Assembly: GCA_003159795.1 (NCBI GenBank) | Contig: PLPK01000011.1 | Coordinates: 34,064-98,063, forward strand | DNA length: 64,000 bases | Direction: 5' to 3' | Origin: Acidimicrobiaceae bacterium | GTDB lineage: Bacteria; Actinomycetota; Acidimicrobiia; Acidimicrobiales; Bog-793 | Part shown: one piece after another, positions 27,467 to 30,948 of the stretch | Layout: every line of letters begins with the position of its first letter | Numbering within the stretch: the stretch's first letter is position 1 | Program-made: the position numbers and the translations under genes | The notes under the pieces: model-generated | Told to the model about the DNA's origin: nothing | The model's input: the letters and a program-made list of their open reading frames with translations, nothing else | Databases searched by the model: none

Positions 27467-27981
27467 GCACTGTGCTCCTCTCATTATCGGTCGTCAGTGG
27501 TGCCCCAGGCCCATGTGGGCACCCGTTGCGCTTGAAGTGAAGGTAAACCTGCCGCGTTTCCCCGCCATATCTGAAATGTGAAATCAGCGTTACTTAGGCC
27601 ATGGCTAGCGCGAGGTCAGGTTTCCCTAATCACTACTTGGAGGACGCGTTCGCGGCGCTGTGCAGTTTCTGTCCGGCGCCGCGAGGCAGGTCAACCACTC
27701 AGCAGAAGCCTTTGGCTTTGGGGCCGCCCTCCCCCTCCGGCTGTCTTTACCTCTCGTACTGGCCCTGCCGCCCGTGGTCGTACGCCACGTCCGGGCGGCG
27801 CTCCGGCGGCCCGGCCGGTCGGGCGGCAGTCGCGGTCCCGGCGGGGTACGTGGCGTCTATCAGGGCGGGCCTGTGCTGCGCGTTCGTCTTCGTTGTCTTC
27901 GTGGAGAGCATGGGGGCCGAGGTCGCCGGCGAGGTTCTCCAGGCGGGTGACAAGGCCGATGCCACTTGAGCTGGTCTTATC

Positions 27982-27996
27982 TGGCTGGCGGGGGAG
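27982..27996. repeat. left copy of the 15-bp direct repeat (orphan tRNA-Gln 3' fragment)
   Basis: TGGCTGGCGGGGGAG is identical to 29273-29287. The flanking bases differ on both sides in both copies, so the repeat is exactly 15 bp. Confidence 0.85.
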
Positions 27997-29272
27997 TGCG
28001 TGATTTCAGGACATAAGCGACAACGACGCCGCTGATGTGTCAAGACATCGGAGACAGTGACGAAGGGGGTCTCCGGTGGACAAGGGACGTTTCCTCATCG
28101 AGCGCCACCTGAAGGAGGGGACGCCGATCGCCGAGCTGGCGGCGGCCAACGGCATGCACCGGAGCTGGCTCTACAAGCTCCTCGCCCGCTACGAGGCCGA
28201 AGGTGAGCCCGGGCTCGTCCCCCGCTCGCGCCGCCCGCACCGCTCGCCTGCTCGGATCTCCGACCTGTTCGAAGACGAGATCGTGCGGCTGAGAAAGTCC
28301 CTCGCGGACGCCGGGTGGGACGCCGGCGCCGAGACGATCCACGAGCACCTGGCCCAGCGCCACTGCCAGGTCCCGTCGGTTTCCACCATCTGGCGGGTAC
28401 TCCGGGCCCGGGGCTTTGTCACCCCCCAGCCCCACAAGCGCCCCCGGAACTCCTACGTCCGCTTCGCCGCCGAGCTCCCCAATGAGTGCTGGCAGATTGA
28501 CACCACCCACGTCCGCCTGGCCGACGGGAGCGACGTCGAGATCCTCAACGTGATCGACGACCACTCCCGCCTCTGCGTCGGGGCCCGGGCCCGCAGCGTC
28601 TACACCGCGGCCGAGGTGGTGGCGGTGTTCTCGCACTCGATCGGCCGATTCGGCGCCCCGGCGGCCGTCCTCTCGGACAACGGGGCCATCTTCACCGCCG
28701 CCTACCGCTTCGGGGTGGGAGCCCTGGAGGCCGAGCTCGCCTCGTTGGGCGTCGACTTCAAACACTCCCGGCCCTATCACCCCCAGACCTGCGGGAAGGT
28801 CGAGCGGTTCCACCAGACCATGAAGAAGTACCTGCACCGCCAGGCCGCTCCGGGATCGCTGCGCACCCTCCAAGCCCAGATCGACCGGTTTGTCGAGTAC
28901 TACAACACCACCCGCCCGCACCGCTCGCTGGGGCGACGCACCCCCGCTGAGGTGTTCTCCGCCCGGGCCAAGGCCCATCCCCGGCTGCCCCCGGGGCCGG
29001 GCGACCACCGCCTCCGTCACGACCGGGTCGATCCGGGGGGCAAGCTCACCCTGCGCCACAACGGGCGGCTCCACCACATTGGGGTCGGGCGGGACGATGC
29101 CGGCGAGGCCGTCGCCATCTTCGTTTCCGGGCGCGAGGTGCGAATTGTCAGCGAAGAAGGCGAACTGATCCGCCAATTCGAGCTGGACCCTCGCGGGACT
29201 ACCAGCCGATGAGCTGAACCAGGTGTCTACTATGTCTCGCGACATCGTCTCCGATGTCTCGCGACAGGACAA
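27997..29272 (+). mobile_element. IS481-family insertion sequence (1276 bp) flanked by a 15-bp target duplication
   Basis: It holds a single DDE transposase. Subterminal motifs GACAT-N4-GAC(A/G) occur twice at each end in inverted orientation (28010-28022, 28044-28056; reverse complement at 29224-29236, 29246-29258). The outer copies lie 13-14 nt from the direct repeats. Confidence 0.8.
28076..29212 (+). CDS. IS481-family DDE transposase (rve integrase core)
   Basis: N-terminal HTH (GTPIAELAAANGMHRSWLYKLLARY), then ECWQIDTTHV, VIDDHSR, VLSDNGAIF and RPYHPQTCGKVERFHQTMKK, the DD(35)E catalytic core. GTG start behind AAGGGGG. Confidence 0.9.
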   Translation: MDKGRFLIERHLKEGTPIAELAAANGMHRSWLYKLLARYEAEGEPGLVPRSRRPHRSPARISDLFEDEIVRLRKSLADAGWDAGAETIHEHLAQRHCQVPSVSTIWRVLRARGFVTPQPHKRPRNSYVRFAAELPNECWQIDTTHVRLADGSDVEILNVIDDHSRLCVGARARSVYTAAEVVAVFSHSIGRFGAPAAVLSDNGAIFTAAYRFGVGALEAELASLGVDFKHSRPYHPQTCGKVERFHQTMKKYLHRQAAPGSLRTLQAQIDRFVEYYNTTRPHRSLGRRTPAEVFSARAKAHPRLPPGPGDHRLRHDRVDPGGKLTLRHNGRLHHIGVGRDDAGEAVAIFVSGREVRIVSEEGELIRQFELDPRGTTSR

Positions 29273-29287
29273 TGGCTGGCGGGGGAG
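29273..29287. repeat. right copy of the 15-bp direct repeat (functional 3' end of tRNA-Gln)
   Basis: Identical to 27982-27996. It corresponds to tRNA positions from the T-stem 3' strand through CCA. Confidence 0.85.
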
Positions 29288-29348
29288 GACTCGAACCTCC
29301 AACCTCCTGATCCAAAGTCAGGCGTTCTGCCTCTTGAACTACCCGCCA
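29273..29348 (-). tRNA. tRNA-Gln (anticodon UUG), CCA encoded
   Basis: Hand-folded cloverleaf: acceptor TGGCGGG/CCCGCCA, D arm GTTC-aagaggca-GAAC, anticodon arm CCTGA-CTTTGGA-TCAGG (U33-UUG-G37), T arm GGAGG-TTCGAGT-CCTCC, discriminator G, CCA. Total 76 nt. Confidence 0.9.
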
Positions 29349-29436
29349 CCGAACCACGTAACTCCGACGCTGGTAACCACGCTGAGCACACCTGATCCGC
29401 GCGTCAGCGGGTCTCCAGCCTCGCGCAGACGATCAC

Positions 29437-29748: not shown

Positions 29749-29989
29749 GGATACCTGGAAAGCGACATAACCCTCGCGAAGGGGGTCATGCCGACAACCA
29801 GCCGCCGCACCGTTCCCGGGTGGGCCGGAACCACACGGCGTGCGGCGAGGATGCCCACTTGCTCAGACCGGGCGCGACGAGCGCGGCCGCGCGCGGACCG
29901 GCTCCTTCGGTGACCATTGGGCCTCCGGGCCGGTGCTGTCGCCGGTCGTGGAAACTGTTCGGTCTCCATCAGCTAACGTCGGCGAAGCC

Positions 29990-30085
29990 ATGGGATCTCT
30001 GATCAAGAAGCGCCGCAAGCGCATGCGCAAGAAGAAGCACAAGAAGATGCTGAAGCGCACGCGTTGGCAGCGTCGCGGCAAGTAG
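29990..30085 (+). CDS. actinobacterial small ribosomal protein bS22
   Basis: [31 protein letters not shown] (31 aa) closely resembles the mycobacterial bS22 sequence as I recall it ([25 protein letters not shown]...). It is the terminal part of track ORF 29840..30085. Confidence 0.8.
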   Translation: [31 protein letters not shown]

Positions 30086-30150
30086 CCAGACTCACCACCC
30101 GCGTCGAGATACACCGCCGGTCCGGCCATCGCGGCTCGGGTCGCGTGGCT

Positions 30151-30948
30151 TCAGGCGGCGGCGTGAGCGACCTCGACGACCGCGCGCAGCCCCTCGGAGA
30201 CGATCGCGGCCGAGAGTGAGTTCGCCATCGCCGAGGCGCCGCGTGGGTCGCACTCCAGGAACCACGTCGCCCCGCTCCCGGCGAGCGTCGGCCGTCGTCC
30301 GGCCAGTTCCGCGAACAGGTCCCGGAACCGGCCGAGCCGCGGCTCGACGACGAGCGCCGCCCTCTCAAGGTCGTTCCGCGAGGCCCCCCGCTCCGGCGCG
30401 CCGACCTCGTCGAAGGCCTTGTAGACGGCCGCGGTCGGCACGCCGAACGACGGCGTGAAGAGCAGGACCGTCATCTCGACCGGCGCGAGCGCCTGCACGA
30501 TCTCGCCGACGCCCCGCACGATGGCGTGACCACCCGACAGGCAGAACGGGACGTCGGCACCGAGCCGCGACGCGAGCATGGGATCCCCGACGCCCGCCCA
30601 GCGAAGCGTCGCGGCGGCGTCCGCCGAACCGCCCCCGAGACCCGCCCCCGGCGGAATCCGCTTCATGAGGCGCACGTGCGCCGTTCGTCCCGCGAGCTCG
30701 AGAGCCCGGACGACGAGGTTCTCCCGGGTGGGCACGTCAAGGAGCACCGGCTCGGCGGCTCCCAGTCCGACCCAGCCGATCTGGTCGACGATCTCGAGAC
30801 CGTCTCCCTCGCTGAACTCGAGCTCGTCGGCGAAATCAAGCGCGACCATCTCCGCCTCGATGAGGTGGTAGCCGTCGTCGCGTCGCCCGGTGACGCGAAA
30901 CGACCGGGTCAGCTTGGCGGGCGCGAGCGATCGATCGACTTCTGGCAT
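30151..30948 (-). CDS. ispE: 4-diphosphocytidyl-2-C-methyl-D-erythritol kinase
   Basis: APAKLTRSFRVTGRRDDGYHLIE and the GHMP motif PPGAGLGGGSADAAA are present. I used the ATG at 30948. The 439-aa track ORF upstream of it is Arg-rich overlap with rsmA. Confidence 0.88.
   Translation of the reverse strand: MPEVDRSLAPAKLTRSFRVTGRRDDGYHLIEAEMVALDFADELEFSEGDGLEIVDQIGWVGLGAAEPVLLDVPTRENLVVRALELAGRTAHVRLMKRIPPGAGLGGGSADAAATLRWAGVGDPMLASRLGADVPFCLSGGHAIVRGVGEIVQALAPVEMTVLLFTPSFGVPTAAVYKAFDEVGAPERGASRNDLERAALVVEPRLGRFRDLFAELAGRRPTLAGSGATWFLECDPRGASAMANSLSAAIVSEGLRAVVEVAHAAA

Follow-up and report, generated by a model that had tools for sequence, protein, structure and literature searches.

How an insertion sequence (IS) can occupy the 3′ end of a tRNA gene and leave that gene complete is the question raised by a locus in a 64,000-nucleotide stretch of DNA from an Acidimicrobiaceae bacterium (GenBank assembly GCA_003159795.1, contig PLPK01000011.1, positions 34,064 to 98,063 of the forward strand). 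This whole stretch is called the window hereafter, and coordinates refer to it unless a locus is named. The element in question (27997-29272) lies next to the gene for tRNA-Gln(UUG), between two copies of a 15-bp repeat. The results presented here indicate that it is very probably an intact IS481-family element from a clade whose site- and orientation-specific target is the 3′ end of tRNA genes, found through recognition of the DNA that encodes the T-arm.

The 15-mer TGGCTGGCGGGGGAG is present in exactly two places in the window, 27982-27996 and 29273-29287, and no further match with up to two mismatches was detected there. ARAGORN called a single tRNA in the whole window, the tRNA-Gln(UUG) on the minus strand at 29273-29348, which scores 67.9 bits with the Rfam tRNA model; the Rfam scan of the region gave no RNA family besides this tRNA, and none in the element. 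The 15-mer is the reverse complement of tRNA positions 62-76. Read in the tRNA sense (CTCC-CCCGCCA-G-CCA), it consists of the last four nucleotides of the T-stem, the 3′ strand of the acceptor, the discriminator G and the encoded CCA. The copy at 29273-29287 is the functional 3′ end of the tRNA, as judged from the repeat search and the ARAGORN call. It is abutted at 29288-29297 by GACTCGAACC, the reverse complement of T-stem/T-loop positions 52-61, which its conservation in targets makes a candidate recognition element. Between the two 15-mers lie 1276 bp (27997-29272) with one long open reading frame (ORF) of 378 aa (28076-29212).

The exact predicted empty site, a 31-mer composed of CTTATC, the 15-mer and GACTCGAACC, had no match in metagenome contigs. 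A search of metagenome contigs with the 3′ 32-mer of the tRNA retrieved 12 loci. Ten of these loci (L114-L116 and L118-L123, with L124 as a partial tRNA copy) have the tRNA end ...GCCAGCCA directly followed by GAT[AG][AC]GA[CT]CAGCTCAAG[TC]GGC..., a pattern that corresponds, in reverse complement, to window 27959-27981, the segment found after the orphan 15-mer. BLAST alignments gave the same picture: window 27959/27961-27996 is contiguous with the tRNA end in the empty-site loci (89-97% identity), window 29273-29352 is 98.8-100% identical in L114-L116 and L118-L123, and the ispE side (29922-30861) is 73-95% identical in L114, L118, L120 and L123. Since these relatives carry the 15-mer once, inside the tRNA and contiguous with the flank, the window equals an empty site plus the IS plus one extra 15-mer, and the orphan copy at 27982-27996 (reverse complement of tRNA 62-76) is therefore a target-site duplication and not an att relic. 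The segment 27959-27981 (GCCACTTGAGCTGGTCTTATC...), which directly follows the intact tRNA-Gln in L114-L123 (there with 92-97% identity), represents the original 3′ trailer of the gene, cut off from it by the IS. The tRNA-Gln(UUG) at 29273-29348, with its encoded CCA, is 100% identical over 80 nt to the uninterrupted genes of L114 and L118-L123. Together with the recurrence of the pattern in relatives of the element, the empty sites exclude a chance repeat of the 15-mer.

These loci bear out an earlier note, made from the letters of the window alone, which had located both 15-mers, read the second as the 3′ end of an otherwise intact tRNA-Gln(UUG), and proposed that an insertion in this 3′ end had restored a full-length tRNA by duplication and left an orphan 3′ fragment behind. 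The empty site that it suggested looking for does exist in relatives, as a tRNA-Gln joined directly to the window trailer, and the observation that it named as fatal, relatives with the fragment and without the IS, was not made: IS-free relatives have the 15-mer once, within the tRNA. Its remark that 15 bp is at the upper end of the IS481 range agrees with the literature (2-15 bp, mostly 6; PMC10045372).

Relatives of the element were sampled as one genome per GTDB species, which gave 80 loci with transposases 43-95% identical, mostly in Acidimicrobiia metagenome-assembled genomes (MAGs) and also in Nocardioides, Terrabacter, Mycolicibacter and other Actinomycetota. For the majority of these loci, ARAGORN placed the beginning of a minus-strand tRNA gene 64-139 nt past the transposase match. 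Junctions were scored by anchoring on the IS terminus ...ACA in the 69 loci with enough downstream sequence. The right end of the IS was found 15-17 bp from GA-N-T-Y-GAAC, the reverse complement of T-loop/T-stem positions 53-61, in 58 of these 69 loci (15 nt, n=28; 16 nt, n=29; 17 nt, n=1), and in 58/58 junctions the transposase gene converges on the tRNA, i.e. only one orientation was observed. The targeted tRNAs decode 12 amino acids (Gln, Leu, Lys, Met, Val, Arg, Ser, Thr, Gly, Ala, Pro and Glu). At the DNA level, the window IS is 94% identical to the element of L012, at tRNA-Leu, and 88.5% identical to that of L014, at tRNA-Lys. The 11 exceptions comprise tandem ISs in which a 15-nt tRNA fragment is followed by another IS (L023, L047), truncated elements (L054, L062, L074, L089), an element with a degenerate right end that is yet beside a tRNA-Ala T-loop (L035), rearranged flanks (L031, L049), an odd case (L076) and a single true non-tRNA site (L068), which has a T-arm-like flank, caaccgaacgtgcgac.

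Both junctions could be read in 39 elements. The duplication is perfect in 30 of them (15 bp, n=17; 16 bp, n=12; 17 bp, n=1), and in the remaining nine the mismatches are confined to the outermost 1-3 nt. Its inner edge is fixed at tRNA position 62 and its outer edge lies 3-4 nt past the discriminator, with or without an encoded CCA, while the sequence of the repeat varies with the local tRNA. Complete tRNAs are still called by ARAGORN beside IS copies (48 distinct IS-adjacent tRNA sequences), which shows that the duplication preserves the gene. Short duplications of 4-6 bp at non-tRNA sites, which the earlier note had given as a second way of being wrong, are not what the relatives display, with 58 of 69 loci at the same tRNA position and duplications of 15-17 bp. 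The insertion into the tRNA that this note described stands, as one case of a specificity shared by the clade and not as an isolated event.

The element itself has, at the level of sequence, every feature used to assign members to the IS481 family, that is a single-ORF transposase, termini TGT...ACA, a length of about 0.95-1.3 kb and a duplication of 2-15 bp, mostly 6. The 378-aa product of the plus-strand gene at 28076-29212 scores 245.6 bits against the NCBIfam model NF033577 transpos_IS481 (cutoff 224) and remains below the cutoff of the IS3 model (128 vs 160). Its Pfam domains are HTH, LZ_Tnp_IS481, rve and rve_3, and one uninterrupted frame spans the HTH, the DDE core and the C-terminal domain, with no programmed frameshift, unlike in IS3. 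Residues D142, D201, E243 and K250, assigned as catalytic by motif position (WQxD, SDNG, GKVER), are invariant across 25 aligned homologues and fit a DDE-K signature. The AlphaFold model (mean pLDDT 71.5, moderate confidence) predicts helix-turn-helix domains at the N-terminus, a core of RNase H-like fold and, at 306-375, a C-terminal beta domain of six strands. The latter has no match in Pfam and was considered as a special target-binding module. This was rejected, because IstA, TnsB, MuA and retroviral integrases, the Foldseek neighbours of the model, have the same layout of HTH, catalytic core and beta-barrel, and the C-terminal domain is thus generic to the superfamily and not diagnostic.

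The motif GACAT-N4-GACR occurs in the element at 28010-28022 and 28044-28056 (plus strand) and at 29224-29236 and 29246-29258 (minus strand). These are four of the six matches in the whole window, where 1.3 are expected by chance, and the outer GACAT-N4-GAC copies are 13 and 14 nt away from the duplication. The motifs belong to longer units: a left terminal unit at 27997-28022 (plus strand), TGCGTGATTTCAGGACATAAGCGACA (clade consensus TGtgngagTTCAGGACATAgGcnACa); a left subterminal unit at 28036-28056 (plus strand), TGTGTCAAGACATCGGAGACA, the inverted partner of the right-end units; and two right-end units at 29224-29266 (minus strand), direct 20-mers (29225-29244 and 29247-29266; repeat D3) that each contain GACAT-N4-GAC and jointly form a hairpin with 15-nt arms (repeat I9). 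In the best inverted repeat (I1), 28036-28062 pairs with 29240-29266. A promoter and terminator scan gave no signal above chance.

The window copy starts with TGCGTG... on the left and finishes with ...GGACA(A) on the right, for a length of 1275-1276 bp. The TGC in place of TGT is found in its sublineage, the clade consensus being TGTG... for both ends. The right terminus (29267-29272, plus strand) consists of GGACA and an extra A of non-target origin, as deduced from junction comparison and the empty site. Comparison with relatives puts the end of the element, ...GGACA, at 29271, and the A at 29272 matches neither the target (C in the empty sites and in the left flank) nor the ends of L014 and L015. 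From profile matches and the relatives' ends, the IS (plus strand) is thus best given as an element of 1275 bp (TGC... to ...ACA) followed by a single unmatched A at 29272; its right boundary is 29271 or 29272, uncertain by one nucleotide. An unmatched A is present at the right junction in six of the nine imperfect junctions (29272 in the window; also L017, L019, L021, L034 and L060); one possibility is that it is a donor-flank base that was carried over. The duplication of 15 bp is at the upper limit for the family, and those of the relatives, 15, 16 and once 17 bp, go slightly past the ISfinder range quoted in PMC10045372. The description given in the earlier note, an IS481-family element with one DDE/rve transposase in 1276 bp and GACAT-N4-GAC(A/G) twice at each end with the outer copies 13-14 nt from the duplication, is therefore accurate. 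Two details need rewording: of its boundaries, 27997 and 29272, the left one is retained and the right one becomes 29271 or 29272, and its two inverted copies per end, which are present, are more aptly called a terminal and a subterminal repeat unit, both of which begin with TGT/TGC and contain GACAT-N4-GAC.

Across the clade the consensus ends (termini TG...ACA) are TGtgngagTTCAGGACATAgGcnACa on the left and TGTGATGTCgCgnGACATCGGnaAC (reverse complement) on the right, and the elements are 1263-1397 bp long. The clade is abundant: of 8000 candidate proteins that were scored, every one was within E <= 1e-20. Copies within the same MAG are 99.8-100% identical and lie at different tRNA genes (five copies in one genome, three each in two), which indicates recent transposition. 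Duplications of 15 and 16 bp alternate among 100%-identical copies. The same tRNA can also be hit more than once. In L047 (1620-5595), three tandem ISs separated by 15-nt tRNA-derived spacers, one of which comes from a tRNA-Arg, end at an intact tRNA-Met; L051, L063 and L083 contain two tandem ISs each, and L023 is also tandem. In L032 (2795-2918), L033 (2870-2918) and L072 (2845-2888), two or three orphan tRNA 3′ fragments are stacked directly left of the IS and are separated by IS-end remnants of 1-5 nt (TGTCT, T, ACA); they look like footprints of earlier cycles of insertion and loss at the same tRNA. The site is reusable because an intact T-arm and 3′ end are regenerated. In five loci (L013, L024, L030, L035 and L050) the left orphan comes from a different tRNA than the right-hand gene. 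Homologous recombination between copies of the IS is implied, with tRNA genes as the anchor points of the resulting genome rearrangements.

At the limits of the clade, a 754-kb Arthrobacter replicon carries an element of 42% identity with a 15-bp duplication, TGGTGCCCCGGGCGG, beside GAATTGAACC, within a 32-nt tRNA 3′ fragment. A 34%-identical IS481-type element on the Mycolicibacterium alvei plasmid pJCM12272 (L128, 1380-2780) shares the end architecture with repeated GACATCGGTGACA and makes a 15-bp duplication, TCGCCAAGGCGGGAT, with no tRNA or T-loop beside it, and a 35%-identical Rhodococcus element is not at a tRNA either. On this basis, tRNA targeting marks a subclade (identity to the query of about 42% or higher) within the IS481 elements with long duplications. 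The L128 element may serve as an outgroup in mapping the origin of the specificity.

Within the clade, the T-arm GAACCTGCG adjoins the IS in 19 of 27 junctions for the lineage below 52% identity vs 2 of 31 in the Acidimicrobiia lineage, a difference to which host tRNA composition could contribute. At the right junctions of L045-L088, the IS lineage of Nocardioides, Terrabacter and mycobacteria mostly adjoins tRNA-Pro, tRNA-Met and tRNA-Arg, whose common T-arm is GGTCGCAGGTTCRAATCC; this lineage may have an extended target preference of its own.

The genome comparisons establish the insertion, its duplication, the fixed position and orientation across the clade, the recent activity and the reuse of sites. 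The following mechanism would account for them. The transpososome would recognise the double-stranded DNA encoding the T-arm (GGTTCRANTC) and contact it on one side of the target only, which would explain the single orientation, with the transposase gene always converging on the tRNA. One IS end would be joined at the T-stem boundary, between tRNA positions 61 and 62, and the other at a point 15-16 bp off, which is 3-4 nt past the discriminator. Repair of the gaps would then duplicate positions 62-76, so that the copy attached to the tRNA regenerates a complete gene and the other becomes the orphan on the far side of the IS; the recreated T-arm and 3′ end would let the same tRNA be targeted again. 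By analogy with IS3/IS911, a family related to IS481, the pathway is presumed to be of the copy-out/paste-in type, and the use of tRNA genes as a safe harbour is a plausible rationale for such targeting. That the T-arm is read directly by the protein as a DNA sequence is suggested by the constant distance to the T-loop, by the T-arm-like off-target L068 and by the difference between lineages at GAACCTGCG T-arms.

The same targeting could depend instead on a host factor or on a structure of active tRNA genes. Candidates are the machinery for transcription or processing, an R-loop formed with the 3′ end of the nascent or mature tRNA, and a cruciform of the T-arm. In favour of this are the high transcription of the target genes, the match between the duplication and the 3′ acceptor/T-stem strand, and the short palindrome that the T-arm forms, a feature also pointed out for the casposon target; conservation alone cannot tell a sequence signal from a structural one. 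However, the distance to the T-loop is nucleotide-precise whether CCA is encoded or not, and ISs are found beside 3′ tRNA fragments that lack the 5′ half and the promoter (L011, L015, L038, L046, L126), though separation after insertion is possible in these cases. The T-arm-like non-tRNA site L068 and the lineage-specific T-stem preferences also favour readout of a sequence. We hold this alternative to be unlikely. The 3′-half targets were also considered as proof of a minimal target. This was rejected, as integration of an island after the IS insertion could have split the halves.

Much less probable still is a choice of target guided by an RNA encoded in the non-coding ends of the IS, as with the bridge RNAs of IS110/IS1111. 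About 80 nt on the left and 60 nt on the right are non-coding, and nothing specific speaks for such an RNA. These ends are filled with the repeated GACAT-N4-GAC units typical of transposase binding sites, the element contains no Rfam family, and no clade-conserved segment complementary to GGTTCGA was seen. DDE/rve transposases are not known to use an RNA guide without accessory proteins. Essentially random insertion with a long duplication, from which only the harmless insertions at tRNA 3′ ends survive selection, would fit with the neutrality that the duplication does confer and with the relatives at 34-35% identity that sit elsewhere, but has almost no chance of being correct, since selection cannot yield one position and orientation in 58/58 junctions at 12 tRNA types and would have spared the equally neutral intergenic insertions, which are almost absent. 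Equally negligible is a reading in which a tyrosine-integrase island left the 15-mer at 27982-27996 behind as an old att remnant and the IS landed between att copies: other integrative elements do use tRNA-Gln in relatives (44-49-nt partial 3′ copies in L120, L123 and L124) and synteny is broken left of 27959, but the repeats abut the IS termini exactly with no integrase or island between them, about 40 further tRNA loci, differing in sequence, show this 15-17-bp pattern too, and the empty sites, with their one copy contiguous with the trailer, refute it.

Recognition of T-arm DNA thus remains the preferred explanation, and several observations weigh against it. GA-N-T-Y-GAAC-C is invariant beside the duplication in 55 unique targets, part of this motif being the search anchor, so that its invariance is partly circular; the G and A at +0/+1 and the C at +9 are unforced. 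The recognised feature is deduced solely from conservation common to every tRNA gene. C74 and T60, tried as additional target determinants, were set aside as uninformative, being equally invariant in 10 tRNAs not directly beside a matched IS copy, a comparison set of which several members lie within tandem-IS loci. Judging from the stacks of orphans and their IS-end remnants, excision may occur now and then, although a pure copy-out/paste-in pathway would not predict it, and the unmatched A at 29272 and the alternation of 15 and 16 bp are likewise not accounted for. The L128-type relative indicates that the specificity is not general to the IS481 members that make long duplications. Finally, the copy in the window gives no sign of current activity of its own, being single and fixed in all contigs with this IS.

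This fixed state was observed by several routes. The 24 contigs read with an identical transposase are all from the same lineage, and among the 10 sites listed for them, those with a sufficient flank have the same tRNA-Gln locus. Contigs found via the upstream permease and the downstream 103-aa ORF likewise have this locus with the IS, and among all sufficiently long contigs found by transposase, permease or 103-aa ORF there was no presence/absence polymorphism. L110, a contig found through these flanking genes, breaks off precisely at the CCA of the tRNA, where the IS boundary lies. Permease orthologues (83-94% identical; L099-L103) were examined as empty sites and discarded, because their synteny does not extend beyond about 27603 and they have no tRNA. 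The segment 27604-27958 (about 355 bp, from the permease upstream region to the trailer) has no homologue in L099-L103 or L114-L123; gene callers predict in it a 122-aa ORF without a Pfam match.

Degenerate copies of 44-49 nt of the same tRNA-Gln 3′ part are found at L120 (4037-4080), L123 (3128-3171) and L124 (1217-1265), 2.3 kb from the intact gene in L120 and L123; they are probably att remnants of other integrative elements using this tRNA. On the other side of the gene, between tRNA-Gln and ispE, the C-terminal end of a plus-strand ORF (29840-30085) encodes a very basic peptide, MGSLIKKRRKRMRKKKHKKMLKRTRWQRRGK, with a weak COX24_C match in the precomputed annotation; we take this ORF to be probably that of the actinobacterial small ribosomal protein bS22.

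ISs are usually viewed as poorly selective gene disrupters, and homing to tRNA genes as the business of tyrosine integrases, Tn7-like machines and casposons. We are somewhat inclined to see in these elements the first recognised prokaryotic IS lineage with a generic, nucleotide-precise and orientation-specific targeting of tRNA genes, in which a single DDE protein would read the near-universal T-arm DNA and apply a 15-16-bp yardstick, any tRNA gene would be a self-regenerating and reusable landing pad, and the target geometry, a 15-bp duplication with the T-psi-C loop, would be convergent with that of the unrelated Cas1 casposase. If this is correct, it would be a new target-selection strategy for the IS481/IS3/retroviral-integrase superfamily, and it would give a concrete function to the IS481 duplications of about 15 bp left unexplained in PMC10045372. 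The elements would also be compact candidates for safe-harbour integration with a broad host range. Targeting of tRNA genes accounts for the IS copies, tandem arrays and stacks of 15-nt fragments that flank tRNA genes in Acidimicrobiia and other Actinomycetota, and for such loci acting as recombination hot spots.

Comparison with known systems starts with the IS481 family itself. IS481 and IS1002 prefer a short site of the NCTAGN type. The window element resembles the family in its single-ORF DDE transposase, its size of about 1.3 kb and its TG(T/C)...ACA ends, and differs in its duplication of 15 bp, most members making 6 bp. Duplications of 15-16 bp are on record for ISMac4, ISA0963-1 and several eukaryotic IS481EU families, and the authors, who do not mention tRNA in their paper, have "no clue" how these long duplications are formed (PMC10045372). 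In the searchable full-text literature, ISfinder and TnPedia lying outside this scope, no report was found of tRNA-gene targeting, or of a fixed orientation to a host gene, by IS481-family or other single-protein bacterial ISs.

Among eukaryotic elements, the Dada DNA transposons and the retrotransposons Ty3, TRE5-A and DGLT-A similarly bring DDE-type enzymes to tRNA genes, which are multicopy and serve as safe sites. Pol III factors direct Ty3 and TRE5 to sites that lie upstream or downstream of the gene. Dada occupies fixed positions in tRNA genes (anticodon arm or A box) with 6-7-bp duplications and disrupts the gene (PMC8869645), whereas the bacterial element preserves it by means of its long duplication. 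Tn7-like elements with tRNA attachment sites (TnsD/TniQ- or CRISPR-guided) have a DDE transposase of the same structural superfamily, TnsB, and insert in one orientation downstream of conserved genes including tRNA genes. They are multi-protein systems (TnsA/B/C and a target selector), and they insert some way off the sequence that is recognised, with duplications of 5 bp. In contrast, one 378-aa protein is the only gene of the window element, which has no TnsC or TniQ/TnsD beside it and a 15-bp duplication, so that only the fold is shared.

Islands and prophages with tyrosine integrases at tRNA or tmRNA genes likewise use the 3′ part of the tRNA, restore the gene and leave a direct repeat. 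They proceed, however, by site-specific recombination between attP and attB, depend on identity with one particular tRNA and make no staggered-cut duplications. In the window clade there is no integrase, the DDE transposase being the only gene between the repeats, the repeat is derived from the target and follows the local tRNA, and any tRNA can serve as a target.

Functionally, the nearest parallel is the family 2 casposon of Aciduliprofundum boonei, with its unrelated enzyme, a Cas1 casposase. It is a large, self-replicating element that uses one tRNA (Pro), whereas the clade has a DDE/RNase H enzyme and uses many tRNA species; nor does the window element, with 1.3 kb and one rve-type ORF, have the Cas1 casposase and the family B polymerase between inverted repeats that define casposons. 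The casposon duplication overlaps the tRNA by 5 bp, and that of the clade covers 12 nt of the tRNA and 3-4 nt beyond. In the casposon and the window element alike, the insertion nevertheless lies at a tRNA gene's 3′ end, 15 bp are duplicated and the geometry is the same, the duplication lying beside GAnTYGAAC.

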